Source: an uncultured bacterium
Lineage (GTDB): Bacteria; Verrucomicrobiota; Kiritimatiellia; RFP12; UBA1067
Reading direction: 5' to 3'
Assembly (NCBI GenBank): GCA_902801025.1
Contig: CADCGZ010000012.1
Location: forward strand, 29,830-93,829
DNA length: 64,000 nt
Below, piece by piece: positions 4,541 to 22,254 of this stretch (positions within the stretch are counted from its first letter, which is position 1; each line of letters begins with the position of its first letter). Under the pieces are notes generated by a model, which had not been told where the DNA came from, did no database searches, and was given only the letters and a program-made list of their open reading frames with translations. Both the position numbers and the translations under genes were made by a program.

Positions 4541-4617
4541 TTCAACTCTCCTTTTTTGTCAAAAATCAAAACACACCTAACGGTACGGCCCATCCGAGCC
4601 GCCGAAAAGTTGTTGTA

Positions 4618-4646
4618 GTATAGCAAATAGCCCCCCGAGCGGTCAA
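4618..4646 (-). promoter_or_regulatory. Sigma70-like promoter of the nusA operon
   Basis: Minus strand reads TTGACC, a ~17-nt spacer ending TGC, then TATACT, about 80 nt upstream of nusA. Confidence 0.6.
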
Positions 4647-4708
4647 CCCGCAAAACTGCGATTTTTTATGCCCTAGATCAGTTGCAAATGAGCTGCATAC
4701 GCTGGACC

Positions 4709-6874: not shown

Positions 6875-6909
6875 CTGACTCCTAACTACTAACTACTGAC
6901 CCCTGACCC

Positions 6910-7626: not shown

Positions 7627-7655
7627 CACTCCTCCATAGAGCCAATTTTTGAGTT

Positions 7656-7686
7656 TAGCCGTGTAGAACGTGTAGATCGTGTAGAA
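7656..7686. repeat. 9-mer tandem repeat (GTGTAGAAC-like, x3)
   Basis: tagccgtgtagaacgtgtagatcgtgtagaa; an inverted copy lies at 38623-38653. Confidence 0.75.
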
Positions 7687-7857
7687 TTTCTGCATGTTAT
7701 ACCTTGGCTTATCCTTTTGACATATTAAACGCCCCTATTCACAAAACGGTTCATACGCGATATAAGTAGCAGATCACACCCGGCACAACTTCCCGCCTTC
7801 CGTCTTCACCTACCGCGCACCTTCAATCTGCCGCCGCTTCGCCAGCGGGTAACAACA

Positions 7858-7892: not shown

Positions 7893-7977
7893 CTGACAGT
7901 CTTCCACCACTTCTACTTCTCGTGCCTACCGGTCGGGCCGCACGAGCCCCCGTCCGTGCAAGTCCGTGGTTAACACC

Positions 7978-10900
7978 CTACCGTTTGCCGAACACGAAGT
8001 CGCTGAAGTCGCTGTCGCAGGAGGTGCCGACGGCCTTTACCGAATAGTAGTAGGTCTTGTCTGCTGCGCCACTTTCATCGGCGTAGGTCGTCTCCGTGGT
8101 GGTGTCGATCTCGACTGCGTAGTCGCTGCCGGTCCGCGTGCCACGGTAGACCCTGTAGTACGCCGCACCGTCGACCGACTGCCACGAGACCGTCACCGCC
8201 GCCGCGCCCGAAGTGGTCGTCGCCGTGACGCCCGTCGGCGCTGGAATCGAGCGGAAGCCCGTCTCGACGGCGCTCTTCGCGCTCTCGGAGACCGCATTCG
8301 TCGCCGTCACCCAATAGAAGTAGAGCGTTCCCGGCGCGGCGGTCGTGTCGTCGAACGAGACGGACGGGACAGCAGGGACGGACGACACGACCTCTGCCGC
8401 ATCTGGATTGTTCGAGGTGCCGCGATAGATCTTGTAGCCCTCCGCGCCGGGCGTCGCGTTCCACGACACCGTCACGCCCGTCGCCGACGTGCCGTCCGTC
8501 GCGTACACGCCCGTCGGTGCGCCGATCTTGAGGCTGCCGGCCGCGCCCGCGCTGTAGCCGCTCGCGTTCCGGCCCTCGCCGTCCGCCGCCGCCACGACGA
8601 AGTACCAGTACGTCACGCCCGGCTCGGCGGTCGTATCGGAATAGTTGAGCGCCGTCTGCCAGCCGCTGACCGGCGTCTTCGAGCCGCTTGCCGACGCGCT
8701 ACGGTACACGCGGTAGTGGCTGGCCTCCGCCACGGCGTTCCACGCGATCTTGACGCGGTCGGCGAAGCCGCCGTTCGAAGCCGTCACGCCTTCCGGCACC
8801 GCAAGGCGCAGATAGCCGACGTCCGAAGCAGACGCCTCGCCCTCGAAGCTCGCGCCAACCGCGACGACCCAGTAGTTGTAGGTGACGCCGTTCGCCGCAT
8901 TGAGATCCATCCAGCTCGTGCCTGCCGAAGTCCCGACCTCGACGGCATCTTCCACGAACTCCGTCGTCGCGCGGAGAATACGGTACGAAACCGCACCCTC
9001 AACCGCGTTCCACGTCACCGTGATCCAGTCCGCGGACGTGCCGTCGGACGCCGCCACGTTCCTCGGTACGCCAATCTTGCGGTTTCCGGCCGCGCTTGCG
9101 CTCGTCATCCACTCGCCGCCGTTCGCCACGGAGACAATCCAGTAGTAGTACCACGTGCCGGGAAGCGCCGTTGCGTCAACGTACGCCGTGTCCGCCGTGG
9201 ACGCAAGCAACGTCGCCTGGCTGAAGTTGTCGACCGTCGAACGGTAGATGTTGTAGCCAACCGCCCAATCGACGGCGCTCCAGGAGATCGACACGTCCCC
9301 GGCGGATGTCCCCGCCGTCGCCACGACATCCCGCGCAACGCCAGGTTCGCCCATCGTAACTGTCACCTTGAAGAAGCGATGTTCCTCGTTCACCGGAATT
9401 ACCCACGCCGTATCGGTCAGGTTCGTCTTGCCCATCACCGTGTAGTGGCGCTTCGGTTCGGCGTTCGAGAGATCCGGCGTCCACGAGACCTCAACCTCGC
9501 CGTCCGCTCCAACATGAATGTCGGCCAGCAACTGCGAGTCGGGATCCCACGGATCGAATCCCGCGACCCACGATTCCCAGAGCGGAATGCCGTTGTCGCC
9601 AACCTGCACCATTTTCGACTGAAGCGACTCGGGCGTCGAATCTTCGTCCACGTACCCGTATGCGCCGAGCCATTCGACCGGCACCGCCGCGTCCGTCCCT
9701 TCCACAGGCACATTGCCCAGCCCCGTCGGGAGCGTGAACTCGTACGCGCCGATATCGACGATGCCGTTCTGGATGCGCGCGTTGCCGCGAATGTCCGTCT
9801 CGCCCGAGACATACCTGTTGTTGCCCATGTCGATGCACGGCGAGTCTCCCAGCAGACGGAAGTCGCCGTTCGCCGCATCCACGAAACGCGGATTGCCCGT
9901 GAAACTGTTGAAGGACGCCATGCGCGAGTCGATATTATTGTCCGAGGTGCCAGCGCTGTTTCCATAAACGATGCAGTTGTAGTTCGTGCTAACGGACACT
10001 CCATCAACAAGCCATGCATGCGTCCCGCCGCTATTGTAGCCGCAACGGTTATCGTAAATGGTGCAGTTCCGGCAAACAGAACGCGAAGCACCGCCACCAG
10101 CACCCTCGGTCGCGCAGTTCCCGTAAATGAGGCAATTCTCCAATTCTGAATCATACGCTCCGCCACCGTACCCCGTACTTATCAGTGCGCATTCGTTATC
10201 GGTAATAACGCATTTGGAAACTGTTGCACTATTAATTCCGCCGCCACTAACGGATGCAGTGTTGTTGCTGACGACACAGCCATACAGGCTTCCGCCATAG
10301 GCGCCACCTCCGTGTGTCAACGCCACGTTGCCCTGGAGGACACAGTTCGTCACAGCCGCAGCATACGTTCCGCCACCAGACTTCTCCGCGCGATTTGAAA
10401 TCACAGAACAGTTAACCAGCACACCGCCACTGGCACCCGCGCCATTTGTTGGGCAACTATTGTTGATGAACAAACAGTCGTAAGCCATCGCCGAATGTGA
10501 ACCTCCGCCACTGTTCCCGCACGAGTTCCCTTCCACCGTGCAATGATAAAGCGCAGAGTAGCAGGTACCGCCACCGCTACGCGCAGCACGGTTTGAGACA
10601 ACAAGACAGTCGTATAGCGAGCCACCATAAACGCCGCCGCCGTCAAACGGAGTTGAATATCCGTTCTGTATCGTAAATCCGCGAAGAACGGTATTCGTCA
10701 TGGATGCCGTTGCGGAATAACCCGACAACCTTGCGCACATCGCCGTGTTACCGCCGTCGATGATAGTCCGCTCAGCGCCGTTCACCGACTGGATGGTGAT
10801 CGACTTGTTGTTCGAGTTGATCGGGGCGTACGTGCCGTCCGCGACAATGATCGTCATTCCCGCAACCGACTGGTCGATCGCGTGCTGGATCGTCTTGAAC

Positions 10901-13900
10901 GGCTGCGCCGCGCTGATACCTTCGTTCGCGTCGTTGCCGTTCGTCGCATCCACGTACCACGTGTCCGTCCACTTGGCGGAGAGCGTCACCACCGCGCCGT
11001 CGTTCGTCGCGATGTTGAGCACCTGCTGCCTGTTCGTGTAGGACACGGTCGCCGAGTCCCCTCCCGTCGTCCAACCCACGAATCCGAAGCCTTCCTTCGT
11101 GAACGCATTCGCCTTGAGGTTGACCGCCGTGTCGTATGTCGCCGCCTGGTCCGACATCGCACCTTCCGCGCCGTTCGGCAGGAAGCGGATCGTGTAGGCG
11201 TTCGGACGCCACACGGCGTAGAGCGCGAGCGTACCGCCCGTCGCGAGGTTCGAGACGGATGCTCCGTCCGCGTAGGCCGCGCTCGTCGCCTGCGGGTTCG
11301 TGGACCAGCCGAGGAACGTGTAGCCCGTCCGCGTGTAGCTTCCGTTCGACAGGTTCTGCGCCGTGCCGTAGGTGAAGCCCTGCGAGGCCATCGCGGCGCC
11401 CGTGCCGCCGTTCGCGTTGAACGTCACCGTGTACGGATTCGCCGTCCACACCGCGTAGAGGTTGACCGTCCCGTTCGCCGTCGCTGTCAGGTTGCTCACC
11501 ATCTGCTTGTTGGCGTATGCCGCATCCCCGTCGGCGGACGTCGCCCAGCCCTGGTACGTGTAGCCCGTGCGCGTGAACGCATTCGCCGTCAGCGCCTTCG
11601 CGGCATCGTAGGTGAACGACTCGTTCGCCATCGTCCCCGTGCCGCCGTTCGCGTTGAACTTTACCGCGTAGGTGTTCGCCTTCCAGACCGCGTACAGGTT
11701 GATTGTCCCGTTCGCCGCCGCCGTCAGGTTGCTCACCGTCTGCTTGTCGGAATAGACCTTGCTTCCCGCAGCCGTCGTCGCCCAGCCCTGATAGGCGTAG
11801 CCTGTGCGCGTGAAGGCGTTCGCCGTCAGCGCCTTCGCGACATCGTAGGTGAACGACTCGTTCGCCATCGTGCCCGCGCCCTTGTTGGCGTTGAACTTCA
11901 CCGTGTAGCCGTTCGCCTTGTAGGTCGCGGTCAACGTCACCGCGCGTCCCGGCATCTTGAACGTGGTAGAGGCGGACGTCTTGCTCGTCACCAGCGCGAC
12001 ATCGGCCGCAGCGCCCGTCCACTCCTTGAACGAGTATCCCGTCGGCGCGGCGTTTGCGACGATCGGCACCGTGGTGTTCGCAAAGCAGTTCGTACTGCCC
12101 TTGCCGCCCGCGACTGTCAGCTGGTACTTCAACCGATAACCGGAGTCGCTTGCACTAACTTTTCCGCGCTTGCCGTCGACCTGAGCCTGAACCCAAAGCC
12201 AATAGAGATTTGTCGTGTTCGCACTCGTGTGATACATGTTCGTCGTCGACCAATTCATCGTCACGGCATCCGAAAAGTTTGGCGTCTCACTCTTCCATAT
12301 CAAATATTTCTCCGCACCAGGCACCGCCGTCCATGTAAGGAGAATACCATCCGGATCCGTTCCGTCAGACGCCGCAAGGTTCACCACCTGGTTCTGGCTG
12401 AAGTTCGCGAAGTTAACGACGGCGCGGAAACCACGTAGCGTGTCGGTAAAATATGCCTGATTCCTCAATCTGTGTGCACCCGAACGGCAATGCGAGGAAT
12501 AATTACCCCAGGTACCACCACGTATGCTTCTCTCGGACCCAGTTTCTCGGCCTACAGGATCCGTTGCAGTACTTGAAGTTACGGTCCCAAACCAGTCGAG
12601 GCAGAACTCGCCCACATTACCGTGCATATCATAGAGTCCCCAAGCATTGGGCAGATACGAACCAACCTTCGCCGTTCCCGTCTCATCCGTACTCCCATTA
12701 TAGTCATACGAATTATTGTATGATCCGCTGTTGTAGTAGTAACGGCCCACTTCAGCCATGTTGGCATCAACACCGGAAGCAGTCGAAAGGTTCTTACCGG
12801 AATTGAGCGCCGTCGTCGTTCCTGCACGGCATGCATATTCCCACTGCGCCTCGGTCGGGAGGTCGAAGAGCCGCCCCGTTTTTGTACGTAACTTGCCCAT
12901 GAAGCTCGTCTCGTCAACCGAATTCATCTGCGGCCAGTACTTGCCCATGTCCGAGCCACGAATCTGGTTATAGCTGACGCTTTCGACAGGGCGTGTCGCA
13001 TAGCAAACCGTGTTCGAGAATGCGCTCGGACGATTCCCCATCACCAATTCCCACTGGCGCTGGGTCAGTTCGAATACGCCAATGTAGTAGGAATGCGTCA
13101 ACGTCACCTGATGCGGCGTCTCATCGCTATCCAACCGTCCAGCCTCGCCAGTCGGCGCACCCATCGTGAACGTGCCTGGGTCGATGCGGCGGAGAACGAG
13201 CTTCGTCGTCTTGTACTCGTCCGTCCAGCCGCCGGACGGGATGTCCGTGAGGTTGCTGACGGGATACGACGCCGCGTTCGGTCCGCCGCTCAGGTCGATG
13301 ACGAGATACGACTGCAGGTCGTCGTACTCCGCCGTGAACGAGAGGTTGCGCGTGGGCATCGTGAACGTGTTCGTCATGCTGTTGGCGTTCGCGAGCACCG
13401 AGACGTCGCCCGTCCAGCGCGTGAAGGCGTAGCGCGGCGAACGGTCCTCGGCCGCCACGGTCACCGTGTCGCCCTCGTAGTAGATCGCGCCGCCCGTGCC
13501 GTTCGCCACCTGGACGGTGAAGTTCGTGTCGTCCGACGCGGAATACTCGTACGCGCCGATATCGACCGTATTGTTGTCGATGCGCGCGTTCCCCGCGAAG
13601 TCCACCGTGTTCGTCACATACGCGTTGTTGCCCGCGTTGATGCACGGCGAGTTGTACCGCAGGCGGAAATCCCCCGCCTCCGCGCGGATGAACTGCGGAT
13701 CGTTCGTGTAGCAGTTGAAGGACATAACGCGAGTGTCGATTTCATTGTCCGTCCCAGCCGTATTGCCATAAACGATGCAATTGAAGTTGGTTGCGCTCGG
13801 CACACCGTCCCAAAGCTCGCTGCTCACACCGCCACCGCGGCCACCACAAGAATTGTCGTATATTGTGCTGTTTATCGCAATGGCGCTGGCTATGCCGCCA

Positions 13901-16503
13901 CCATTTTCATTTGGTGCCTTGTTTCCATATACAATGCAGTTCTGCAATTCTCCGCGGAACACACCGCCGCCCCAGCGTCCACATTCATTATCGGCGATAA
14001 TGCAATTATAGCACTTGCCGCTACTAGTGCCGCCGCCATGAATTGTTGATTTATTGCTCGTGATTTCCGAATCGTAAATAGTCGCACCATACGCACCGCC
14101 GCCCCAGCCATACGACTCATTGCCGACGATAACGCTTTTTATAACGGTGCCGGCGCGCACACCGCCGCCATGCTGCCATGAGACATTATTGGTGACAATA
14201 CAACCATAAAGGCTGCTTCCATTAACACCGCCACCGTGTTCCAGCGCCTCATTACACTGAAAAACACAATTCGTAGCGAAACCGCCATACACACCGCCGC
14301 CGGTTTTTTCCGCACGGTTTGAGATCACCGAGCAGTTGATCAACACACTGCCATTGGCACCCGCGCCACTTGCCTCGCACCTATTGTTGGAGAGCAGACA
14401 GTTTTCAAGCTGGCTACGATATGCGCCGCCACCATCGGCCTGCGCGTCGTTATCGCAAATCGTACAGTCATACATCACGGAGTGTGCCACGCCGCCACCA
14501 CATCCGCCAGCATGGTTAGATTTTACAACGCAATCGTACAGCGTACCGCCTGCAACACCAGCGCCGTTTATTCCGCTTGAAAGTCCGACAGAGCATCCAT
14601 TCAGCATGGTAAATCCGCGAACAACCGTATTGGTCTTATCGTTATTTCCACCCGCATACACGCACCGATTCGTCACCGCCGGATATCCACCGTCGATGAC
14701 CGTCGTCGCCGCGCCGTTCACCGACTGGATGGTGATTGCTAGGTTATCCGTGCGAATCGGTGCATACGTGCCATCCGCTACGAAGATCGTCATCCCGGCC
14801 ACCGACTTGTCGATCGCGTGCTGGATCGTCTTGAATGGATCATTCTCGCTCGCGCCCTCGTTCGTGTCGTCGCCCGACGTCGCATCCACATACCAACGGT
14901 CCGTCCACTTGGCGTAGAGGTTCACCGTCGCGTTCATCTGGTTGGTCAGGTTCAGCACCGACTGCTTGTCCGTGTAGGCGACCGTCGTTCCGTTCGCCGA
15001 GGTCATCCAACCGACGAAGGCATGTCCCGTGCGGGTGAAGCCGTTCGCCGTGAGCGTCGCGTTCTGTCCGTAGGTGCAGGCGAGCTGGGCCGTCGTGCCG
15101 CTGCCGCCGTTCGCGTTGAACTTCACGGCGTAGGTGTTCACCTGCCACACGGCGAAGAGGGTGACCGTGCCGTTGGCCGTCGCCGTGAGGTTGCTGACGG
15201 ACTGTCCGTTCGTGTAGGCCGCGCTCGTCGCGCCGCTGGAGGTCGCCCATCCCTTGAACGTGTAGCCCGTGCGCGTGAAGGCGTTCGCCGTCAGCGCCTT
15301 GGCCGTGCCGTAGGTGAACGACTCGTCCGCCATCGTACCCGTGCCGCCGTTCTTGTTGAACTTCACGGAATACGTGATCGGCGTCCACTGGGCCGTCACC
15401 GTCTTCGCGCCGAAGCCGCCGGCGGGGATGCTGGCGGGGTTCCAGCCGTTGAACACGTAGCCCGTCACGTTCGCCAGAGGGGTGAAGGTGATGGAGCTGT
15501 CGATGTTGTACTGCGCGGGGTTTGAGTTCGCCGCCCCCTTCGTGTTCGCGTAGGTGATGGCGTAGTACCCCGAATGCTTGAACGTGGCCGAGTAGTTGGC
15601 CGTCCCCGCCGTGTAGGTCAGCTTCCAGTAGTTCGTCTGCTCCGAGTTGGGCGTCCACGAATAGGCGCCCTTGCTCGAAAGCCCCGACACCGCCGTGCCG
15701 TTGACCTTGAGCGTACCCGACGACGCCCCGCCCCAGGCCGTATCGTAGGCGATGGATTCCGTCGTCTTCGCGACGCGCGTCCCCGTGCGCGTATCGAGCG
15801 CAACCGCCGAAGCCGCCTTCGCCGCCGACATGGATTTTACCGGGCGGAGCGGGAAACCATAAATGCGAGAAGTCGTATTCGTTGCACGCCAAACTCTATT
15901 TCCAGAACCAACCGTAATCCTCCGGGTTCCTACAGAATCTGCGGTCGCACTCCACAAATAAATCGTGTCGACTTTATTGGTCGTTGTACCATCGCCATAT
16001 CCCATCGCCGGAATGAATACACTGTTGCCAGCATAGAGACCTTTGCCTACAATTGTATAACCAACCACCCCATTGTTGGTCGTCCAGTTCCATGAACATA
16101 GCGCCAACAGATTTTCTATCTCGGATGCCTTCGGCACGCGCCAGTCGTCACCCCATTGCTGCGCCGCAGCATCGTAGGCAGGCAGAAGATTGCCGTCCGC
16201 GCCTACAACACCCATCGACTGCAGCTGCGCGAGCGACTTCCCGTATGTCGGACAGTTCGCCGTGCTGAAGCTAAAGTTGTTCACCGAACTGTCGCTTGCG
16301 ACCCATTTGGAGTTCTGCCACTTGTAGCCGAGCGTATCGCCCCACCAGAAGTAGTAGCCCGTCTCCGTAGGCGAGTTCGCGCCGACATTAGTCTTGGCCC
16401 ACAGCAGACCGTTCTCCCAGAGCTGCACGCCCTCGTGCGTCGCGCCAAAGACGCCACACACCCAGGCCAGCACCGCGCCAAGCGCCATAATCTTTCTTTT
16501 CAT
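7978..16503 (-). CDS. Giant modular secreted/surface protein (~2,841 aa)
   Basis: Signal peptide MKRKIMALGAVLAWVCGVFGA after AGGAAA. Domains in order: DUF1566/Fib_succ_major-like N-domain, InlB-B/Flg_new-type repeats (YTVKFNANGG), two beta-helix domains each ending in a choice-of-anchor-Q-like DIGAYE segment, an FGE-sulfatase domain (LPTEAQWEYACRAG, GLYDMHGNV), and Fn3-like repeats. Confidence 0.88.
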   Translation of the reverse strand: MKRKIMALGAVLAWVCGVFGATHEGVQLWENGLLWAKTNVGANSPTETGYYFWWGDTLGYKWQNSKWVASDSSVNNFSFSTANCPTYGKSLAQLQSMGVVGADGNLLPAYDAAAQQWGDDWRVPKASEIENLLALCSWNWTTNNGVVGYTIVGKGLYAGNSVFIPAMGYGDGTTTNKVDTIYLWSATADSVGTRRITVGSGNRVWRATNTTSRIYGFPLRPVKSMSAAKAASAVALDTRTGTRVAKTTESIAYDTAWGGASSGTLKVNGTAVSGLSSKGAYSWTPNSEQTNYWKLTYTAGTANYSATFKHSGYYAITYANTKGAANSNPAQYNIDSSITFTPLANVTGYVFNGWNPASIPAGGFGAKTVTAQWTPITYSVKFNKNGGTGTMADESFTYGTAKALTANAFTRTGYTFKGWATSSGATSAAYTNGQSVSNLTATANGTVTLFAVWQVNTYAVKFNANGGSGTTAQLACTYGQNATLTANGFTRTGHAFVGWMTSANGTTVAYTDKQSVLNLTNQMNATVNLYAKWTDRWYVDATSGDDTNEGASENDPFKTIQHAIDKSVAGMTIFVADGTYAPIRTDNLAITIQSVNGAATTVIDGGYPAVTNRCVYAGGNNDKTNTVVRGFTMLNGCSVGLSSGINGAGVAGGTLYDCVVKSNHAGGCGGGVAHSVMYDCTICDNDAQADGGGAYRSQLENCLLSNNRCEASGAGANGSVLINCSVISNRAEKTGGGVYGGFATNCVFQCNEALEHGGGVNGSSLYGCIVTNNVSWQHGGGVRAGTVIKSVIVGNESYGWGGGAYGATIYDSEITSNKSTIHGGGTSSGKCYNCIIADNECGRWGGGVFRGELQNCIVYGNKAPNENGGGIASAIAINSTIYDNSCGGRGGGVSSELWDGVPSATNFNCIVYGNTAGTDNEIDTRVMSFNCYTNDPQFIRAEAGDFRLRYNSPCINAGNNAYVTNTVDFAGNARIDNNTVDIGAYEYSASDDTNFTVQVANGTGGAIYYEGDTVTVAAEDRSPRYAFTRWTGDVSVLANANSMTNTFTMPTRNLSFTAEYDDLQSYLVIDLSGGPNAASYPVSNLTDIPSGGWTDEYKTTKLVLRRIDPGTFTMGAPTGEAGRLDSDETPHQVTLTHSYYIGVFELTQRQWELVMGNRPSAFSNTVCYATRPVESVSYNQIRGSDMGKYWPQMNSVDETSFMGKLRTKTGRLFDLPTEAQWEYACRAGTTTALNSGKNLSTASGVDANMAEVGRYYYNSGSYNNSYDYNGSTDETGTAKVGSYLPNAWGLYDMHGNVGEFCLDWFGTVTSSTATDPVGRETGSERSIRGGTWGNYSSHCRSGAHRLRNQAYFTDTLRGFRAVVNFANFSQNQVVNLAASDGTDPDGILLTWTAVPGAEKYLIWKSETPNFSDAVTMNWSTTNMYHTSANTTNLYWLWVQAQVDGKRGKVSASDSGYRLKYQLTVAGGKGSTNCFANTTVPIVANAAPTGYSFKEWTGAAADVALVTSKTSASTTFKMPGRAVTLTATYKANGYTVKFNANKGAGTMANESFTYDVAKALTANAFTRTGYAYQGWATTAAGSKVYSDKQTVSNLTAAANGTINLYAVWKANTYAVKFNANGGTGTMANESFTYDAAKALTANAFTRTGYTYQGWATSADGDAAYANKQMVSNLTATANGTVNLYAVWTANPYTVTFNANGGTGAAMASQGFTYGTAQNLSNGSYTRTGYTFLGWSTNPQATSAAYADGASVSNLATGGTLALYAVWRPNAYTIRFLPNGAEGAMSDQAATYDTAVNLKANAFTKEGFGFVGWTTGGDSATVSYTNRQQVLNIATNDGAVVTLSAKWTDTWYVDATNGNDANEGISAAQPFKTIQHAIDQSVAGMTIIVADGTYAPINSNNKSITIQSVNGAERTIIDGGNTAMCARLSGYSATASMTNTVLRGFTIQNGYSTPFDGGGVYGGSLYDCLVVSNRAARSGGGTCYSALYHCTVEGNSCGNSGGGSHSAMAYDCLFINNSCPTNGAGASGGVLVNCSVISNRAEKSGGGTYAAAVTNCVLQGNVALTHGGGAYGGSLYGCVVSNNTASVSGGGINSATVSKCVITDNECALISTGYGGGAYDSELENCLIYGNCATEGAGGGASRSVCRNCTIYDNRCGYNSGGTHAWLVDGVSVSTNYNCIVYGNSAGTSDNNIDSRMASFNSFTGNPRFVDAANGDFRLLGDSPCIDMGNNRYVSGETDIRGNARIQNGIVDIGAYEFTLPTGLGNVPVEGTDAAVPVEWLGAYGYVDEDSTPESLQSKMVQVGDNGIPLWESWVAGFDPWDPDSQLLADIHVGADGEVEVSWTPDLSNAEPKRHYTVMGKTNLTDTAWVIPVNEEHRFFKVTVTMGEPGVARDVVATAGTSAGDVSISWSAVDWAVGYNIYRSTVDNFSQATLLASTADTAYVDATALPGTWYYYWIVSVANGGEWMTSASAAGNRKIGVPRNVAASDGTSADWITVTWNAVEGAVSYRILRATTEFVEDAVEVGTSAGTSWMDLNAANGVTYNYWVVAVGASFEGEASASDVGYLRLAVPEGVTASNGGFADRVKIAWNAVAEASHYRVYRSASASGSKTPVSGWQTALNYSDTTAEPGVTYWYFVVAAADGEGRNASGYSAGAAGSLKIGAPTGVYATDGTSATGVTVSWNATPGAEGYKIYRGTSNNPDAAEVVSSVPAVPSVSFDDTTAAPGTLYFYWVTATNAVSESAKSAVETGFRSIPAPTGVTATTTSGAAAVTVSWQSVDGAAYYRVYRGTRTGSDYAVEIDTTTETTYADESGAADKTYYYSVKAVGTSCDSDFSDFVFGKR

Positions 16504-16543
16504 CGTTTTTTCCTTTCTAAAACCTTTCATGCCGCCTCCTTTG

Positions 16544-16579
16544 CTTTGAACTTTCGTGCGTCCGCACAAAAGTTCAAAG
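16544..16579. promoter_or_regulatory. Inverted repeat between the divergent giant-protein and ATPase genes
   Basis: ctttgaactt-tcgtgcg-tc-cgcacaa-aagttcaaag. Confidence 0.5.
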
Positions 16580-16599
16580 TCCCACTGTCAAGCAAGCCA

Positions 16600-16628
16600 T
16601 TGACGCCGCACGCCGAAAATGCTATCAT
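16600..16628 (+). promoter_or_regulatory. Sigma70-like promoter of the AAA ATPase gene
   Basis: TTGACG-17 nt-TATCAT with an extended TG. Confidence 0.6.
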
Positions 16629-16643
16629 ACCATCAAACTTCCA

Positions 16644-17888
16644 ATGCCAGACAAGGATTCTTCCATGTACGATAGCAAGATCAGGAGAAAATGGTTCGTC
16701 GACTGGCTCGCAAGATGGCGCGACAAAGACGTCATCAAAGTCGTGACCGGCATACGCCGTTGCGGGAAAACCACGCTTTTTGAGCTTTTCCGCAAACAAC
16801 TTGTTGAAAGCGGACTTGCCGCAGACAGGATAATCGCAATCAATTTCGAGGATCCCGACTGCGCCTCCTTCGCAGGCTGGCGCGAGGCATGGGAGTTCAT
16901 CAAGCCCAATATCAAGCCAGATGGCAGAACATACGTTTTTCTCGACGAGGTACAGAACGTTCCGGAGTTCGAAAAGCTCGTTGACGGGCTTTACTCCCGC
17001 AAGAATCTCGATGTCTATATCACTGGCTCGAACGCCAAGTTCCTCTCCGGCGAACTGGCCACGTTCCTCACCGGACGCTATGTCGAAATACGCCTCCAGC
17101 CACTTCACTTCACGGAATACATCACCCTGTTCCCCGACAGGGACGCGCATTCCGTATTCAACGACTTTCTGCGTTTCGGCGGCTTCCCGTTCGCCGCCCA
17201 GCTTGCCAACGGCTCGCGCACTCAGCTCGACTACCTCTCCGGCATCCTCGATACGGTTCTCTACAAGGACGTTATGGCCCAGAACGGCTACCGCGACGCC
17301 GCCACGCTCAAGCGCATCGTCCGTTTCCTCTTCGACAACATCGGCAATCTGCTTTCGGTGAACAAGATCGTCGGAATGTTCAAAAGCGAGGGCTTCTCCG
17401 TGCCCCACGCGACGCTGGACACCTACATCGACGCACTCTGCCAGACATTCCTCCTCGACAGGGTGGACCGTTACGACATCAAGGGGCGTCAGTATCTCAA
17501 GACAACGGCGAAGTACTACGTCGCCGACACGGGGCTTCGCCGCACCCTTCTTGGAACGAAAGGCGAAGACTTCGGCCATCTGCTTGAAAATGTCGTTTAC
17601 CGTGAACTGCGCCGTCGGTTCCGCGAAATCTATGTCGGGATGCTCAACAACGGAGAAGTCGATTTCGTGACGCTCGAAAACGGACTCCCCCTCTACTTTC
17701 AGGTGGCGCACACGGTCCGCGACGAAGCCACGCTCACGCGCGAACTCGCCCCGCTCCGCGCCATTCGCGACAACCACCCCAAGTTCCTGCTCACGCTCGA
17801 CAACGACCCGCCGCTCGACCATGACGGCATAAAGCGGATGAATGTTGTCGAATTCCTCCTCGACCCCAAGTCGCTGGAAACGCTGTAG
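16644..17888 (+). CDS. AAA+ ATPase, AAA_14 plus DUF4143 family
   Basis: GIRRCGKTT, FLDEVQ, ITGSN, GGFP, KYYVADTGL, LENVVY and EVDFV motifs. An alternative start at 16665 follows AAGGA. Confidence 0.92.
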   Translation: MPDKDSSMYDSKIRRKWFVDWLARWRDKDVIKVVTGIRRCGKTTLFELFRKQLVESGLAADRIIAINFEDPDCASFAGWREAWEFIKPNIKPDGRTYVFLDEVQNVPEFEKLVDGLYSRKNLDVYITGSNAKFLSGELATFLTGRYVEIRLQPLHFTEYITLFPDRDAHSVFNDFLRFGGFPFAAQLANGSRTQLDYLSGILDTVLYKDVMAQNGYRDAATLKRIVRFLFDNIGNLLSVNKIVGMFKSEGFSVPHATLDTYIDALCQTFLLDRVDRYDIKGRQYLKTTAKYYVADTGLRRTLLGTKGEDFGHLLENVVYRELRRRFREIYVGMLNNGEVDFVTLENGLPLYFQVAHTVRDEATLTRELAPLRAIRDNHPKFLLTLDNDPPLDHDGIKRMNVVEFLLDPKSLETL

Positions 17889-17889
17889 C

Positions 17890-18050
17890 AAACCACAGAT
17901 CAACGCAGACGCGCGGCGCGCGGTCTCTTGCGACTTTGCTTCGCAAAGCTCCTCGCTTCGCTCGTCGGGCAACCTGACGGCTTCGCCGCAGGCGCATCTA
18001 CGCTTGCGCCGTTCCGAGGCCCACAAAGCAAGGGGCATTCTGGCTGAGCC
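17890..18050. repeat. REP-like cluster of TTCG-loop hairpins between convergent genes
   Basis: ctttgc-ttc-gcaaag, ctcgcttcgctcg and cggc-ttc-gccg. Confidence 0.5.
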
Positions 18051-18055
18051 GTAAC

Positions 18056-18892
18056 TCACCCGTCCACCTCCCCAAACATCGTTATGCCAAACTCATTCAT
18101 GAACTTCAACACCGCCTTCAACGAGGGCGTCTTGCCACCCAACGTCTCAGCAAGGTAATTGAAGTTAATTGAATCCGTACAAATACTTTTTTCACGAACA
18201 AAATCCTTGAACGACTTATCCAAATCGCTCTTGTCTTTAAGTGCTTCTCCGTAGACACTTACGCTATGTGCAGCATCTTTTACGCACTCATCCAAAAATT
18301 GAGTGTCACCTAGTTTATTTGCTAGCACCAATGTTTCCACTGTTCTGTAAAGCGGCAGAACAATATCGCGATCTTTTGCATTTCCACTTTGAACTATATG
18401 AAGAAACTTCACCCATTCAAGTTTCATCGTAGAAGACGAGTGTTTCGCTTGCATCCGCTGAAATTGAGAATCAGATTTGAGAAGCTCACCAAGCCGACGT
18501 TTCAGATTACGAACTTCTTTCATCATTTTCTTTTCTCTCCAAACTGACAGAAGCGGAACAACAACTCCTAACAAGGCAACAAGTCCAGAGATTACCCAAA
18601 GTGAAATATTCAGCTGCAACATAAACCTATCATGTGCCGTCTTCAACTCCTCATACCGATCCTTATACTCTTCCTTCGCGTCATTCACGGCCGCCTTCAA
18701 TTCTGCCCTTACCGCCCTATCAAACGCCGTATCCCCTACCGGCGCCATGGTAACCACATTCACAGAAGCTACAGGTGGACACTTCTCCGCCGTCGCAACA
18801 ACAGCATTCGTATCTGCCACCACCGCGAAATTCACAGCTGTTACTGCGAACACAATCAATATCATTCTACTTCTGCTCTTAAGAAATGACAT
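18056..18892 (-). CDS. Hypothetical membrane protein (signal peptide, coiled coil, one TM helix), low GC
   Basis: 278-aa ORF with AAGGAG RBS; hydrophobic segment ISLWVISGLVALLGVVVPLLSVW. Confidence 0.7.
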   Translation of the reverse strand: MSFLKSRSRMILIVFAVTAVNFAVVADTNAVVATAEKCPPVASVNVVTMAPVGDTAFDRAVRAELKAAVNDAKEEYKDRYEELKTAHDRFMLQLNISLWVISGLVALLGVVVPLLSVWREKKMMKEVRNLKRRLGELLKSDSQFQRMQAKHSSSTMKLEWVKFLHIVQSGNAKDRDIVLPLYRTVETLVLANKLGDTQFLDECVKDAAHSVSVYGEALKDKSDLDKSFKDFVREKSICTDSINFNYLAETLGGKTPSLKAVLKFMNEFGITMFGEVDG

Positions 18893-18910
18893 ATTAGCAC
18901 GCTCCTTATT

Positions 18911-19198
18911 TCAGAACTCTTTACAATCTGGCATTTTCGATACTGACTGCTTCATTCTATCAATCTCTTTAATCCCAATTTCTGTCAATCGGTACTGATT
19001 AACACCAACTCTTTCTGCAAATCCAAATTCTATTTGCTCAATTAATTCATCCGCCTCAAAAGGATCAATGTTAAATTCCTGCATAATCTCATTTCTGGAC
19101 GTCGTGACAACGTTTCGGTTATCCATGTGAAGTGACATGAACCACAACAAGTGACCAACATGTGGTCCACAACTTGCAGCTTGGTGTTCTCCATTCAT
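18911..19198 (-). CDS. Small hypothetical protein, possibly winged-helix, low GC
   Basis: MNGEHQ start after AAGGA; C-terminal GFAERVGVNQYRLTEIG resembles a wing motif. Confidence 0.55.
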   Translation of the reverse strand: MNGEHQAASCGPHVGHLLWFMSLHMDNRNVVTTSRNEIMQEFNIDPFEADELIEQIEFGFAERVGVNQYRLTEIGIKEIDRMKQSVSKMPDCKEF

Positions 19199-19274
19199 TG
19201 ATTGAATCCTTCTTGAAATGATTTGCATTTACTGGTTTATACTTCAAACCACCCAGTCTTTCAGGCGATCGCTC

Positions 19275-19607
19275 TTACCATCCTTTTAGACGATCATTGA
19301 CAATACGAAGCTTTCTCTTCGCTCCATCAATAACCTCTTGTGAATTATCTGCATATTCCGCATCACCAACAACACTCACACAGGCTTCAATCGCAACAAT
19401 TGCATTTTCAATGTCACCATAGAAATCATTGACAGTATTTTCTTCAAGCACCTGTGGGCGTAGTTCAGTTAGAAATATCTTCGCCCTTGCAAACAATTCT
19501 ATGAATTTAGATGTTGTGACAATACTTTTCACAGCATCTTCCTGCAAAAACATTTCTTCAAGGGCCCTAAATGTCTCTTTGATTTCTTTTCGCTTTTCTT
19601 TTGTCAT
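19275..19607 (-). CDS. Small helical hypothetical protein, low GC
   Basis: MTKEKRKEIK start after GGAG; 110 aa. Confidence 0.6.
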   Translation of the reverse strand: MTKEKRKEIKETFRALEEMFLQEDAVKSIVTTSKFIELFARAKIFLTELRPQVLEENTVNDFYGDIENAIVAIEACVSVVGDAEYADNSQEVIDGAKRKLRIVNDRLKGW

Positions 19608-19677
19608 CGTTGTTTCTCCGTAATTGTCTTGGCAACACCGCCTCCCAAAAGATCTGTTTGGAGTAGTCTCTTTTATG

Positions 19678-22254
19678 CTAATTTCCATAACTTATGATTG
19701 GGCGGATTTGGTATCCAGCGTATCTAGCAAAGGTCTTGGAAGTAATTGTCCAGTCGTATTCATAAAGTTGGTGCCCATCTGCATCTTCATGCCTATGAAA
19801 CATCCCCCATGCGCCAGTAGAAGTCGCTATAGCAGAAGAAGTAGGAGTATCGGAACACCAACCAAAAAGCAATTGCCCCCCGCCATTTCGCGTCCACCCA
19901 GATTTGAATGATGTCCCTGTACCAACACCTGCAAACGGAATGAAAATACTCTTCGATGCATAATCCCCCTTGCCAGTGATAAGCACTCCACTCACCCCGT
20001 TACGAACAGTACATTCGCAAGTTGTGTTAGCACGAAGTTCCGAAACATCACTACTAGTCGGCATTCTCCACGGAGCGCCAAGGTATTTGGTCGCCGCATC
20101 ATGGGCCGCAACTAGGCTACCATTGCCATCAACCCAACCAGAACTCTGCAATTGTGCAAGTGATTTGTTGTAATTGGGACAATTTGTGCTTGCGAACGAA
20201 AAGCCTGTCACGGAGCCATCAACCGCATTCCAACTATCTCCAACTCGTTTATATCCAACCGTGTCCCCCCACCAGAAGAAGTATCCTGTTCCTTGCGGTG
20301 TTGTTGCACCAAGATTGTTCTTAGCCCAATACGGACCGCCTTCCCATAGCTGCACGCCTTGAGGATCCCACACCGCGTACAGGTTTTTCGTGCCAGAAGC
20401 CGCAAGGTTCTTCACGGTCTGTCCGTTTGTGTATTTCGCAGAGGTTGCATCGGCAGTGTCGGCCCATCCCTTGAAGGTAAAACCATTTCGCGTAAACGCA
20501 TTTGCAGTGAGCGCCTTCGAGACGTCGTAGGTGAAACTCTCGACCGGCATCGTGCCGGAGCCGCCGTTGGCGTTGAACTTGACGGTGTAGGTGTTGGGCG
20601 TGTAGGTTGCCTCGTACGCCACGTCGCGCGACGGGATGGTGAGCGTTGTACTCGCTGATGTCGCGCTCGCAAGGAGACCCGTGTCGGCAGTTGTGCCAGT
20701 CCAGCTCGCGAAGGTGTAGCCCGTCTTGGCCGCCGCTGCGATCGTGACGGACTTACCCTGCACGAACGACCCGGATCCCGTGCCGCCCGTCACGTTCACC
20801 TGGAAGTTCTTCTCCGTCACCTTCGCGGTCACGGCGAAGGAGGAAAGCGTTACCTGCCCCAAGTCGGCGAAGGCGTCCCACACGAACCGCCGCGTGCCGG
20901 GCTGGACCTCCAGCGTGCGGTTGTTCTCACTGGGATTGCCGACGTAGAATGTCCGCGCATTGAGGTTCGTGTTGCCCTTCGTGTCCTTAACCTCGAACGA
21001 GACAGTGCTCAGTCCGCTCGCCGCAAAGGTGACGTCTATGTCGACGAGTCCGTTCCACGGATACCGCTGGCGCGCCGTGACCGAGGTGACCTCAAGGACG
21101 AGTTTCCACACCGCATAGAGATTCACCGTGCCGTCCGGCGTCGCCGTGAGGTTGCTGACGCTCTGCTTGTTGCTGTAGGTCGCCGTTGTCGCGCTCGCCG
21201 ACGTTGCCCATCCCATGAACTTGTAGTTCACGCGCTGGAACGCGTTCGCCGTCAGCGCCTTGGCCACATCGTAGGTCATCGCGAGGTTCGCCATCGTGCC
21301 CGTTCCGCCGTTCTTGTTGAACTTGATGGTGTAGGCGTTCGCCTGCCACACCGCATAGAGATTGACCGTTCCGCCCGAGGTCGTCGTCAGGTTCTTGACG
21401 CTCTGCCCGTCGTCATACGCGGTGGTGGTAGCGGATGCACTCTTAGCCCAGCCGATGAATATGTAGCCCGTGCGCGTGAAGGTGTTGAGCGTAAGCGCCT
21501 TCGCCGTGCCGTACACAAAGCTCTCGTTCGCCATCGACCCCGTGCCGCCGTTCGCGTTGAACTTCACCGTGTAGGGCTGCCCGTCGTACGAAGTGCCGCC
21601 GCCAGATTCACCGCCGCCCGATCCGCCGCCCGAGGAGCTCGCGCGGTAGCCGGTGTTGTAGGAGCTCGTGATGTTTCCGGACGACTTCACGGCAACAATC
21701 CAGTAGTAGTAGGTCGTGCCGGCCACTGCGGTCGTATCGGTATAGGAGGTTCCAGTGACCGTCGTGAGCTGGTTAGCGTACTCGAAGTTGGAAGTATTGC
21801 CGCGCACTACGCGATAGCTCGTCGCGCTAGTCTGCGCCGACCAAGTGATGATGACGCCGGCCGTCGACGTGCCGTCCGAGGCATTGATCGAAAACGACCC
21901 GCCGGACGATCCGCCGCCGCCGCTGCCGCTTGCCGCAGTGGCCATGCCGCTGATCGCATGAGCGCCAGAGCTGTCCCAAGCCTCGACCCAGTAGTAGCAG
22001 GTGTCGACTCCGGCCTGGCTGTCGGTATAGGATGTGCCTGTCGGGGTTCCCAGCGTTGATGCAGAACTAGACGACGCGGTCCAGCTGCGCTTGACAACAT
22101 AATAGGAAGCGCCGCTGACCGACGTCCACGCCAGGCTTACGGACGTCGATGAAGTCCGTGTACAGGACGTTATGCTCGGAGCCGAAATGGCCAGGGCATT
22201 AAAGCCCACGAGCGCCAGACCCAACAGGATCAAACCGCGAATTTTGTTCATCAT
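19678..22254 (-). CDS. Modular secreted/surface protein (858 aa)
   Basis: Signal peptide, two Fn3-like units, Gly/Ser linkers, three InlB-B-type repeats, a RQRYPWNGLVD module, and a C-terminal domain homologous to the N-domain of the giant protein. Confidence 0.88.
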   Translation of the reverse strand: MMNKIRGLILLGLALVGFNALAISAPSITSCTRTSSTSVSLAWTSVSGASYYVVKRSWTASSSSASTLGTPTGTSYTDSQAGVDTCYYWVEAWDSSGAHAISGMATAASGSGGGGSSGGSFSINASDGTSTAGVIITWSAQTSATSYRVVRGNTSNFEYANQLTTVTGTSYTDTTAVAGTTYYYWIVAVKSSGNITSSYNTGYRASSSGGGSGGGESGGGTSYDGQPYTVKFNANGGTGSMANESFVYGTAKALTLNTFTRTGYIFIGWAKSASATTTAYDDGQSVKNLTTTSGGTVNLYAVWQANAYTIKFNKNGGTGTMANLAMTYDVAKALTANAFQRVNYKFMGWATSASATTATYSNKQSVSNLTATPDGTVNLYAVWKLVLEVTSVTARQRYPWNGLVDIDVTFAASGLSTVSFEVKDTKGNTNLNARTFYVGNPSENNRTLEVQPGTRRFVWDAFADLGQVTLSSFAVTAKVTEKNFQVNVTGGTGSGSFVQGKSVTIAAAAKTGYTFASWTGTTADTGLLASATSASTTLTIPSRDVAYEATYTPNTYTVKFNANGGSGTMPVESFTYDVSKALTANAFTRNGFTFKGWADTADATSAKYTNGQTVKNLAASGTKNLYAVWDPQGVQLWEGGPYWAKNNLGATTPQGTGYFFWWGDTVGYKRVGDSWNAVDGSVTGFSFASTNCPNYNKSLAQLQSSGWVDGNGSLVAAHDAATKYLGAPWRMPTSSDVSELRANTTCECTVRNGVSGVLITGKGDYASKSIFIPFAGVGTGTSFKSGWTRNGGGQLLFGWCSDTPTSSAIATSTGAWGMFHRHEDADGHQLYEYDWTITSKTFARYAGYQIRPIISYGN

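Follow-up and report, generated by a model that had tools for sequence, protein, structure and literature searches.

In Rhs and other polymorphic-toxin genes, a conserved, GC-rich core is joined to variable, AT-rich C-terminal tips, and small genes follow. The targets of diversity-generating retroelements (DGRs) include C-type-lectin or FGE-sulfatase folds, and the variable regions of DGRs usually lie where a C-terminal patch of the FGE-sulfatase domain sits.

The type of gene considered here is familiar, and P0001 and P0002 are an unusually clear example of it. Like Rhs genes, they display a sharp within-ORF drop in GC where a hypervariable C-terminal module begins, and the genes that follow P0002 are small, low in GC and poorly conserved. 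Unlike Rhs genes, they yielded no match to toxin or immunity families in Pfam, NCBIfam or PADLOC, either for a C-terminal toxin of P0002 or for an immunity gene behind it; the C-terminal module of P0002 is instead a copy of domain A with weak Lcl_C-type leads, and most of the variable cassettes are internal, not terminal. As in DGR targets, a large putative surface protein has a hypervariable patch at the C-terminal edge of its FGE-sulfatase domain; contrary to them, the locus lacks both a reverse transcriptase (RT) and a template repeat, and its differences show no adenine-specific pattern.

Replacement flexible genomic islands and hypervariable surface loci, as outlined by Lopez-Perez et al. 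(2014, PMC4033161), swap their contents through homologous recombination at boundaries that are conserved. The present locus resembles them in that related genomes hold divergent versions at one and the same position, near-identical versions recur in divergent backgrounds, exchange appears to proceed through conserved boundaries without a dedicated recombinase, the product is presumed to lie on the surface, and divergence is raised at one boundary next to the shared core, in this case at the N-flank of beta-helix 1 between the window and the related locus L034. Unlike those islands, which are outlined in that source as gene clusters, the cassettes here are sub-domain units of ~100–300 codons inside one reading frame; five of them, in two genes, seem to assort independently, and most of their flanks exceed genome-average conservation across species and not within one (PMC4033161).

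Recombination has been positively linked to GC across bacteria; the link has been read as biased gene conversion by Lassalle et al. (2015, PMC4450053) and as more effective selection in PMC11879095, and it is still debated which of the two raises bacterial GC. As in those studies, GC3 in P0001 and P0002 is elevated in segments with evidence of recombination and low elsewhere, and young changes are mostly GC to AT despite the high GC3. The comparisons outlined there are between genes, whereas the contrast here (0.45 versus 0.95) lies within one transcript, and expression level is therefore held constant (PMC4450053, PMC11879095).

Genes and domain architecture

The window, i.e., the whole 64,000-nucleotide stretch of DNA that was analysed, belongs to an uncultured Kiritimatiellae bacterium of the ruminant gut; the organisms concerned have no cultured representative in the data set. 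P0001 and P0002, both encoded on the minus strand, are probably secreted multi-domain surface proteins with putative ligand-binding roles. Hints of surface exposure are a hydrophobic N-terminal leader, read by eye, and repeat families of the adhesin type, while surface location, binding function and selective agent are all deduced from domain types only. Pfam matches comprise Flg_new (InlB B-repeat type), Flg_new_2, fn3, two DUF1565 beta-helices and FGE-sulfatase. The features are as follows, where allele classes are clusters at at least 90% base identity among 11 alleles of P0001 (unless another count is given) from ruminant-gut Kiritimatiellae metagenome-assembled genomes (MAGs) and metagenome contigs.

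7978..16569, minus: P0001, predicted giant secreted multi-domain protein, 2863 aa as listed
16153..16440, minus: domain A, N half (aa 44–139), GC3 ~0.8, conserved among alleles
15805..16152, minus: domain A, C half (aa 140–255), low-GC3 hypervariable core, 11/11 classes
14908..15804, minus: Ig-like region and Flg_new repeats (aa 256–554), GC3 0.82–1.00, scaffold
14698..14907, minus: beta-helix 1 N-flank (aa 555–624) with PFKTIQHAID, high GC3
13765..14697, minus: beta-helix 1 coil core (aa 625–935), GC3 0.40–0.65, 9/11 classes
13186..13764, minus: beta-helix 1 C-cap (choice-of-anchor Q type) and Flg_new_2 (aa 936–1128), GC3 0.85–0.97
12400..13185, minus: FGE-sulfatase domain (aa 1129–1390), GC3 from ~0.75 down to 0.35–0.45
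12415–12582, minus: hypervariable FGE C-terminal patch (aa 1330–1385)
12118..12399, minus: single Fn3-like module (aa 1391–1484), GC3 ~0.6, 9/11 classes
10870..12117, minus: Flg_new_2 and five Flg_new repeats (aa 1485–1900), GC3 0.80–0.97, scaffold
10738..10869, minus: beta-helix 2 N-flank (aa 1901–1944)
9910..10737, minus: beta-helix 2 coil core (aa 1945–2220), GC3 0.42–0.65, 6/6 classes (long forms)
7981..9909, minus: beta-helix 2 C-cap, linker domain and six Fn3-like repeats (aa 2221–2863), GC3 0.72–0.97, scaffold
16644..17888, plus: AAA_14/DUF4143 ATPase between the two surface genes, matching the PADLOC candidate defence family PDC-S01
18056..19688, minus: P0004, P0005 and P0006, three small genes of no known family in a 42–44% GC stretch
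19678..22254, minus: P0002, 858 aa
20503..22254, minus: P0002 scaffold (aa 1–584) with signal peptide, Fn3-like modules, Flg_new and Flg_new_2, GC3 0.65–0.95
19681..20502, minus: P0002 C-terminal copy of domain A (aa 585–858), GC3 0.30–0.60

The likely start of P0001 is Met22 at 16506, ahead of the signal-peptide-like MKRKIMALGAVLAWVCGVFGA. An ORF at 16527–18059 on the minus strand was discarded as a gene, being a spurious antisense frame of the AAA_14 gene (GC1 0.8–0.9; Pfam). P0004, P0005 and P0006 are shared, among 10 related loci, with L034 only.

The C-terminal module of P0002 is 42–45% identical to domain A of P0001 and hypervariable over 6 alleles. With regard to the identity of domain A, the idea of a Fibrobacter-type (FISUMP) domain was dropped, as NCBIfam yielded no hit of that type; in Pfam, the sole hit was Lcl_C at E 0.098, under its cut-off, and PDB sequences gave no match. 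The Atlas provided leads only, i.e., DUF8237 on 11–31% and Lcl_C on 11–15% of cluster members, and an AlphaFold2 model built from a 13-row alignment was unusable (mean pLDDT 44.6).

A synonymous mosaic within single genes

The first-pass annotation had described an alternation of GC-rich repeats with low-GC3 cores, and this holds. In 40-codon windows, GC3 within the 2863-aa ORF of P0001 swings between 0.90–1.00 and 0.40–0.60, a profile that is far from uniform; none of 2000 shuffles of synonymous codons within each amino acid reached the observed between-window variance, and P0002 behaved likewise. High values (0.88–1.00) characterize Flg_new, Flg_new_2 and most Fn3-like repeats, and low values (0.40–0.60) are found at aa 140–255, 625–935 and 1945–2220 of P0001 and at aa 585–858 of P0002. 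Both states are extreme for the genome, because its ORFs have a median GC3 of 0.73 (5–95% range 0.52–0.86) and its 60-codon windows span 0.38–0.95 from the 1st to the 99th percentile. Four of the five low-GC3 stretches named in that annotation (9930–10750, 13720–14690, 15835–16135 and 19680–20510) match the computed profile, whereas 12130–13140 is mixed (0.42–0.80); its example of A/T-ending codons, gtt ggt tat aca att gta, is present on the minus strand, with a match from plus-strand position 16048.

The switches fall inside domains, as had been noticed: GC3 is high in the N half and low in the C half of domain A, high in the caps and low in the coils of the beta-helices, and high at the N-terminal and low at the C-terminal end of the FGE-sulfatase domain. 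In P0002, the switch begins within the last Flg_new repeat. Between low and high segments, GC3 changes from 0.536 to 0.885, while GC1/GC2 are 0.505/0.552 and 0.521/0.536, respectively; GC1 and GC2 are thus unchanged, and the shift is therefore purely synonymous.

Codon usage of the scaffolds correlates with that of the most biased housekeeping genes of the genome (r 0.93–0.94), somewhat more G-ending codons being present in the scaffolds, and that of the cores correlates less (r 0.49–0.52). Along a single mRNA, expression is necessarily uniform. Import of the cores from lower-GC donors into native scaffolds, with amelioration still incomplete, would be consistent with core codon usage that is unlike both the genome (r 0.69) and the housekeeping genes, with the position of the P0002 core next to a 42–44% GC stretch of orphan genes, and with a spacer whose content varies among loci. 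Nevertheless, we regard such a foreign origin as unlikely, in view of the unshifted GC1 and GC2 and of the allele comparison: all 11 alleles lie on contigs of 56–61% GC and all have low-GC3 cores, and core synonymous differences are saturated (pS 0.60–0.69), which points to long separate histories during which GC3 never rose. Moreover, the beta-helix 1 core finds its nearest counterparts in cores from its own gene family (identity 100, 100, then at most 66%); in this comparison, which covered proteins of 1574–5011 aa, those lacking the Pfam architecture of the family reach at most 42% among the 120 matches listed.

Divergence of cores and scaffolds

The same GC3 mosaic is present in 11/11 alleles of P0001. 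The scaffolds, which comprise Flg_new, Flg_new_2 and Fn3-like repeats and domain caps, are common to related species at 85–98% base identity. The presumed binding cores, i.e., the C half of domain A, the coils of both beta-helices, the FGE-sulfatase C-terminal patch and one Fn3-like module, form many old discrete allele classes that are 55–70% identical and saturated at synonymous sites. Over the 11 alleles, the domain A C half falls into 11 classes (the window allele being 57–62% identical to every other), the beta-helix 1 core into 9 and the FGE C-terminal patch into 10. The scaffolds fall into 1–3 classes, with 2 for the Ig-like region plus Flg_new and a single class, at a median identity of 0.95, for the beta-helix 1 C-cap plus Flg_new_2. 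Median base identity is 0.59–0.70 in cores and 0.82–0.95 in scaffolds, and the corresponding amino-acid medians over 26 family members are 48–60% and 77–96%. The cores and flanks of orthologues thus diverge very unequally, and with swaps, as the first reading of the sequence had anticipated.

Its description of homogenised flanks applies between genomes and fails between repeats in a gene, where Flg_new copies are 60–87% alike in bases. Similarly, the near-identity that it reported for the flanks of the two beta-helices extends to a motif of ~20 residues (FKTIQ at aa 579 and 1891), whereas the N-flanks as a whole (alignment columns 30–90) are 73–77% identical in amino acids and 77–78% in bases. 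The two cores are 37–67% identical in amino acids and 48–67% in bases. The beta-helix 2 N-flank of the window bears the motif that is found at beta-helix 1 in most other alleles.

Mean GC3 follows mean pairwise base identity along P0001 (Spearman 0.88 over 144 windows; 0.875 over 72 non-overlapping windows) and along P0002 (0.90 over 22 windows and 6 alleles). Low-GC3 and low-identity states are concordant in 86% of 576 overlapping windows, the discordant ones being 54 with high GC3 and low identity and 24 with low GC3 and high identity. Exceptions to the coupling are the Fn3-like repeats at aa 2416–2471 and 2561–2616, which are variable but GC3-rich, and FGE aa 1256–1315, which is conserved but low in GC3.

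Strong codon bias caps synonymous divergence, and part of this correlation is thereby built in; the confound was controlled with one genome pair, G000 and G016. These share 104 reciprocal best hits with a median amino-acid identity of 64.6%, and their 1186 windows of 40 codons have a median base identity of 0.675 (99th percentile 0.868), with a mean of just 0.71 in windows of GC3 at least 0.9. Against G016, the scaffold windows of P0001 reach 0.94–0.98 and its cores 0.55–0.68. Genome-wide, GC3 and similarity are weakly coupled in this pair (Spearman 0.17–0.34 over the 1186 windows). The tight coupling is a property of the P0001/P0002 locus.

The value of pS is 0.60–0.69 in cores and 0.13–0.36 in scaffolds, while dN/dS is similar (0.18–0.41 and 0.07–0.28, respectively), a combination that suggests cores that are old and not fast-evolving. 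Pervasive positive selection in the cores was considered and set aside, as none is seen at segment level in that dN/dS range. The body of the FGE-sulfatase domain (FGE_main) is conserved as a protein (pN 0.065), deep in its synonymous divergence (pS 0.53) and intermediate in GC3 (0.69); therefore, GC3 follows divergence depth and not protein variability.

The FGE body also bears on whether rare A/T-ending codons are selected in the cores, where they might slow ribosomes during the folding or secretion of beta-helix and lectin-like domains. The retention of the mosaic in 11/11 alleles despite saturated divergence, and the position of the switches inside domains, would suit such an effect on translation kinetics. 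However, GC3 tracks synonymous divergence even in this protein-conserved body, and between alleles the codon identity of cores at the same amino acid is 0.33–0.5, i.e., codon choice is not conserved. In place of the beta-helix 2 core, the alleles L036, L039 and L116 carry a short form with GC3 of 0.8–0.97, and a beta-helix core can therefore do without low GC3. The spacer and its unrelated genes are low in GC as well, and we consider the kinetic explanation improbable.

Probable exchange of cores between backgrounds

Judged from identity matrices of the segments, cores and scaffolds appear to assort independently. The beta-helix 1 core is 98.8–99.9% identical in three alleles, and in two of these the repeat scaffolds match those of the window at only 78–81%. 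Between the window and L116, this core is 98.8% identical over 295 codons, while the Ig-like region plus Flg_new is 78.5% and the Fn3 array 81.0% identical. L034 is ~91% alike to the window over the whole locus and its neighbours and has a beta-helix 1 core that is 99.9% identical, and yet its domain A C half is 57.9–62.4% and its beta-helix 2 core 69% identical; thus, in sister genomes that are ~91% alike, other cores differ by 30–40%. Beside the core at 0.999, the beta-helix 1 N-flank drops to 0.785 in the same pair, against a locus-wide value of ~0.91. A further switch is seen between L115 and L116, where the Fn3-like module is identical (1.000) and the adjoining FGE_main is at 0.82. Divergent versions at the same position, conserved boundaries and a near-identical version in divergent backgrounds, which characterize a replacement-type surface locus, are all found here. 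The exchange of cores between flanks proposed earlier is supported on both sides, since the same core occurs in different scaffolds and the same scaffold with different cores.

Mosaics of this kind could in principle be generated by assemblers that join the contigs of co-occurring organisms at conserved repeats. Every sequence compared is a MAG or a metagenome contig, scaffolds are 95–98% alike between species, and contigs of another sample from the same study (X3) end within Flg_new repeats, leaving those joins unbridged. An artefact is nonetheless very unlikely: the in-frame GC3 mosaic recurs in 11 separately listed contigs, chimeras fail to explain low GC3 in every core allele, and X3 contigs bridge core-flank junctions with 0 differences at 7900–10902, 11819–14365 and 17975–20583, a check that covered the junctions of the window itself. 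For annotators, this implies that a sharp compositional break inside a gene need not indicate a foreign insertion or a misassembly.

Short pieces of the window's beta-helix 1 core allele were also recovered from samples of three other studies (X5–X7), with 1–6 differences in 351–586 bases when matched at 90% likeness. Contig depth in X5–X7 is low across the two beta-helix cores and nil at 18064–19031; it stays nil to 19999 in X5 and X7, with traces of 0.45–1.07 in X6, and is 0.32–0.75 in the 20000–20483 bin. These being contigs, gaps in depth are not evidence.

Search for a dedicated diversification system

Consistent with the first-pass annotation, which had seen neither a recombinase nor an RT nearby, a scan of 20 neighbouring ORFs detected no family of recombinases, integrases, transposases or RTs. 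Matches to the RT family PF00078 occur on contigs C60 and C31 only and not on the window's contig, C12. By blastn, the 82.6%-complete assembly contains no template-like or silent copy of the five cores; the cores retrieved themselves and weak matches within the two genes, with the beta-helix cores mutually 72–77% and the P0002 core and domain A of P0001 71% identical. A second copy of the FGE patch was likewise absent from this assembly, and differences in the patch affect all codon positions, include indels and follow no adenine-specific pattern. Hence, neither the nearby RT and the template repeat with adenine-specific changes of a DGR nor silent donor cassettes of the pilE/pilS type were found in the same assembly.

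Diversification in place within each genome, whether by a DGR-like retroelement, gene conversion from silent cassettes or local AT-biased hypermutation, had been raised together with exchange. In its favour are the DGR-like position of the hypervariable FGE C-terminal patch and the two RT-family genes of the genome; however, the location of these genes on other contigs, the lack of a template or silent copy in the 82.6%-complete assembly and the changes at all codon positions of the patch argue against it. Furthermore, the cores behave as stable, discrete alleles, with identities of 99.9% and 98.8% in genome pairs whose flanks are 9–21% different, and with zero differences in another sample. 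We therefore consider diversification in place highly improbable.

Proposed origin of the mosaic

We consider it reasonably probable that the cores are exchanged as cassettes via homologous recombination in conserved flanks and that the GC3 mosaic is a by-product. Whole cores would be replaced by the general homologous recombination of the cell, with crossovers in the conserved flanks, and neither a dedicated enzyme nor an in-genome donor cassette would be needed. Exchange would probably be driven by frequency-dependent selection on surface binding or recognition, e.g., involving phages, host factors or glycans. Mutation at P0001/P0002 would be AT-biased, and a recombination-linked fixation bias favouring GC, whether through GC-biased gene conversion or through more efficient selection of preferred G/C-ending codons, may lift GC3 to 0.9–1.0 where alleles are similar enough to recombine. 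The cores, whose mutual divergence would prevent heteroduplex formation and whose alleles are scattered over many small lineages, would escape this bias and sit near a mutational equilibrium of ~0.4–0.55.

Singleton synonymous changes in the scaffolds comprise 196 GC-to-AT and 12 AT-to-GC changes (795 GC sites and 41 AT sites), which imply an equilibrium GC3 of 0.38–0.54 against the current 0.95, in a test that has only 41 AT sites and ignores multiple hits. The same singleton pattern would be expected if the scaffolds were merely decaying from a higher GC3. As GC-biased gene conversion predicts, GC3 rises with evidence of recombination, which includes nearest neighbours that differ from segment to segment, and young mutations are AT-biased while composition is GC-rich. 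ORF-free DNA was rejected as a proxy for neutral GC: its GC of 0.50 derives from 1.6% of the genome, in a set biased to stop-rich sequence.

We also envisage, as a doubtful extension, that the architecture is itself an adaptation, i.e., a population-level device for shuffling cassettes in which second-order selection also maintains the high-GC3 scaffolds, whose synonymous sites barely differ from species to species. Lineages with recombination-proficient flanks would then acquire new binding cores, and the five cores would constitute a combinatorial repertoire common to a guild of ruminant-gut Kiritimatiellae.

In the cassette-exchange reading that we prefer, the P0001/P0002 pair offers a contrast in GC3, from 0.45 to 0.95, that parallels recombination history at constant expression, strand and chromosomal position. 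The cores would mark those parts of large Kiritimatiellae surface proteins that are under pressure to vary, probably contacts with ligands, phages or hosts. The near match of codon usage between scaffolds and housekeeping genes (r 0.94) is compatible with codon selection too.

Gene pair and genomic setting

The labels of the sequencing runs that contain this DNA point to an uncultured ruminant-gut member of Kiritimatiellae. Two large secreted repeat proteins are encoded by P0001 and P0002. Between these genes is a 3.1-kb spacer (49% GC) with an ATPase gene on the plus strand and three small orphan genes. The features are as follows:

7978-16569, minus strand: P0001, large secreted repeat protein of 2863 aa
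12415-12582, minus strand: C-terminal patch of the FGE-sulfatase domain (P0001 aa 1330-1385), hypervariable among alleles, median base identity 0.59, with indels
16644-17888, plus strand: AAA_14/DUF4143 ATPase, between P0001 and P0002
18056-19688, minus strand: three small genes of 278, 105 and 137 aa, in a stretch of 42-44% GC
19678-22254, minus strand: P0002, large secreted repeat protein of 858 aa

Pfam and NCBIfam assign to P0001 Flg_new and Flg_new_2 repeats of the InlB B-repeat type, fn3-like repeats, one FGE-sulfatase domain, and two DUF1565 beta-helices, each with a choice-of-anchor-Q cap. A domain with no family name, domain A, forms the start of P0001 and the end of P0002, the copies being 42-45% identical. 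The housekeeping neighbours include infB, nusA, an FtsX/ABC pair, a Mur-type ligase, and a beta-CASP nuclease; no recombinase, integrase, transposase, or reverse-transcriptase families were found in the 20 neighbouring ORFs scanned. A 510-aa ORF at 16527-18059 (minus strand) was rejected as a gene: it is the AAA_14 gene's antisense reading frame (GC1 0.8-0.9, GC2 0.25-0.4).

Codon usage along the genes

Computed in 40-codon windows, GC3 swings between 0.88-1.00 and 0.40-0.60 along P0001 and P0002, which bears out, in place as well as in kind, the sharp alternation claimed by the first-pass annotation. Genome-wide, ORF GC3 has a median of 0.73 (5-95% range 0.52-0.86), and 60-codon windows span 0.38-0.95 from the 1st to the 99th percentile; the observed GC3 variance was reached by none of 2000 synonymous-codon shuffles in P0001 and none of 2000 in P0002. 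GC1 and GC2 are equal in the two states; thus, the shift is purely synonymous. Codon usage in the scaffolds (the GC3-rich repeats and domain caps) correlates at r 0.93-0.94 with that of EF-G plus RpoC and of the 20 most GC3-rich long genes, whereas the cores (the low-GC3 segments) reach only 0.49-0.52 against the same housekeeping-type sets. Pfam families occur in 18 of these 20 genes, mostly of housekeeping or central metabolism, and GlnA, GroEL, NrdD, RpoA, and glycogen phosphorylase are among the most GC3-rich long genes.

Alleles in related genomes

A same-genus genome, G016, has both surface genes in a different neighbourhood. Between it and the window's own genome (G000), the single pair serving as baseline control, amino-acid identity has a median of 64.6% over 104 reciprocal best hits, 40-codon windows have a median base identity of 0.675 (99th percentile 0.868), and windows with GC3 of at least 0.9 have a mean of 0.71. 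In P0001, base identity with G016 reaches 0.94-0.98 in scaffold windows and 0.55-0.68 in the cores. G016 keeps the GC3 mosaic with one exception, beta-helix 2, which is shorter there and has a GC3 of 0.8-0.97; low GC3 is thus not needed for the beta-helix fold, and a folding requirement was rejected as its explanation.

Two collection scans supplied further alleles, comprising five full-length genes from species-representative MAGs and four from metagenome contigs, three of which are truncated by the contig end. One related locus, L034, is colinear with the window and about 90-91% alike, neighbouring genes included, and therefore represents a sister species. The surface-gene locus adjoins infB, nusA, and the FtsX/ABC pair (window 759-7695) in both the window and L034; its neighbours on contig C9 of G016 match other G000 contigs (C1, C3, C35, C160), so its position is not conserved within the genus. 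Alleles also vary by gain or loss of whole repeat units (L013/L039 versus window aa 330-475 and 2046-2180). The G016 allele is without about two Flg_new-type repeats and roughly 130 aa of coils in beta-helix 2, and the missing stretches are in register with the repeats.

Assortment of cores and scaffolds

Mean GC3 follows mean pairwise identity among 11 P0001 alleles (Spearman 0.88; 0.875 over 72 non-overlapping windows), and P0002 obeys the same rule (rho 0.90, six alleles), although part of the correlation is mechanical because synonymous sites can diverge less far where codon bias is strong. In P0001, runs of low GC3 span aa 165-245, 638-946, 1256-1379, 1409-1472, and 1951-2206, and runs of low identity aa 180-240, 633-951, 1316-1389, 1414-1477, and 1901-2226. 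Two Fn3-like repeats that are GC3-rich yet variable, and FGE aa 1256-1315, conserved yet low in GC3, are exceptions.

When clustered at 90% identity, the 11 alleles form 9-11 classes in the cores and 1-3 in the scaffolds, and 26 family members have a median identity of 48-60% in the cores versus 77-96% in the scaffolds. It is plain from the pairwise identities tabulated below that cores and scaffolds assort. All alleles are metagenome assemblies, and contigs of another sample leave the joins across the Flg_new repeats unbridged.

Base identity by segment between P0001 alleles (L115 and L116, like L034, are related loci)
Window-L034; beta-helix 1 core; 0.999
Window-L034; domain A C-half; 0.58-0.62
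Window-L034; beta-helix 2 core; 0.69
Window-L034; single Fn3-like module; 0.65-0.70
Window-L116; beta-helix 1 core; 0.988
Window-L116; repeat scaffolds; 0.785-0.81
L115-L116; single Fn3-like module; 1.000
L115-L116; FGE body adjoining that module; 0.82

Searched against 5.8 billion protein clusters, limited to proteins of 1574-5011 aa, the beta-helix 1 core matches the window's own entry and one more at 100%, followed by family members at up to 66% and, among the non-family proteins listed, up to 42%. The two beta-helix N-flank motifs of the window (about 14740-14850 and 10760-10860, minus strand) are swapped relative to most alleles, which suggests exchange between the two beta-helix positions. 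Among the other flanks compared, PINSNNKSITIQ occurs at beta-helix 1 in five of seven and PIRTDN.AITIQ at beta-helix 2 in four of six.

Between genomes with flank differences of 9-21%, cores are the same or almost the same, and another sample contains no core differences, its contigs bridging the window's core-flank junctions; hypermutation was rejected on the grounds of this constancy. DGR variable regions usually lie at the C-terminal end of an FGE-sulfatase domain, as does the hypervariable patch of P0001. No DGR signature was found at the patch, and a DGR was rejected: neither the patch nor any core has a copy elsewhere in the assembly (82.6% complete), reverse-transcriptase matches in G000 are on other contigs only, and the patch differences are spread over all codon positions. 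The two reverse-transcriptase (PF00078) genes of G000 are at C60:4967-5620 and C31:38866-39324.

Origin of the GC3 contrast

Synonymous divergence (pS) is 0.60-0.69 in the cores versus 0.13-0.36 in the scaffolds, with similar dN/dS (0.18-0.41 versus 0.07-0.28). The FGE body is conserved in protein but synonymously deep (pS 0.53), with an intermediate GC3 of 0.69, indicating that GC3 follows the time for which alleles have been separate and not protein variability. Singleton synonymous changes in the scaffolds, where AT sites are few, number 196 GC-to-AT versus 12 AT-to-GC; the equilibrium GC3 that they imply is 0.38-0.54 versus a current 0.95, and the cores are approximately at this equilibrium. 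Since one mRNA entails the same expression throughout, the simplest account is a GC-favouring fixation bias, which, being dependent on recombination between similar sequences, would raise scaffold GC3. Such a bias may be either biased gene conversion (PMC4450053) or more effective codon selection (PMC11879095), each of which has been discussed for bacteria.

Comparison with known loci

P0001 and P0002 are a clear case of an already known kind and provide a useful natural experiment on recombination and base composition. A GC contrast resembling theirs is found in Rhs-type genes. Their nearest known counterparts are hypervariable surface loci that homologous recombination replaces at conserved boundaries (PMC4033161); by comparison, the cassettes here are sub-domain parts within one reading frame, number five in two genes, and are common to several species.

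The intergenic spacer

The three small genes match no family in Pfam, NCBIfam, or PADLOC and, among 10 related loci, are present in L034 only. The AAA_14/DUF4143 ATPase has a PADLOC match to PDC-S01, a candidate anti-phage family (E 2e-144); its amino-acid identity is 98% in L034, and only distant relatives occur in L114 (30%) and L039 (36% over 130 aa, at another place in the locus). At five other loci that were examined, the spacer is likewise GC-poor (0.48-0.56).
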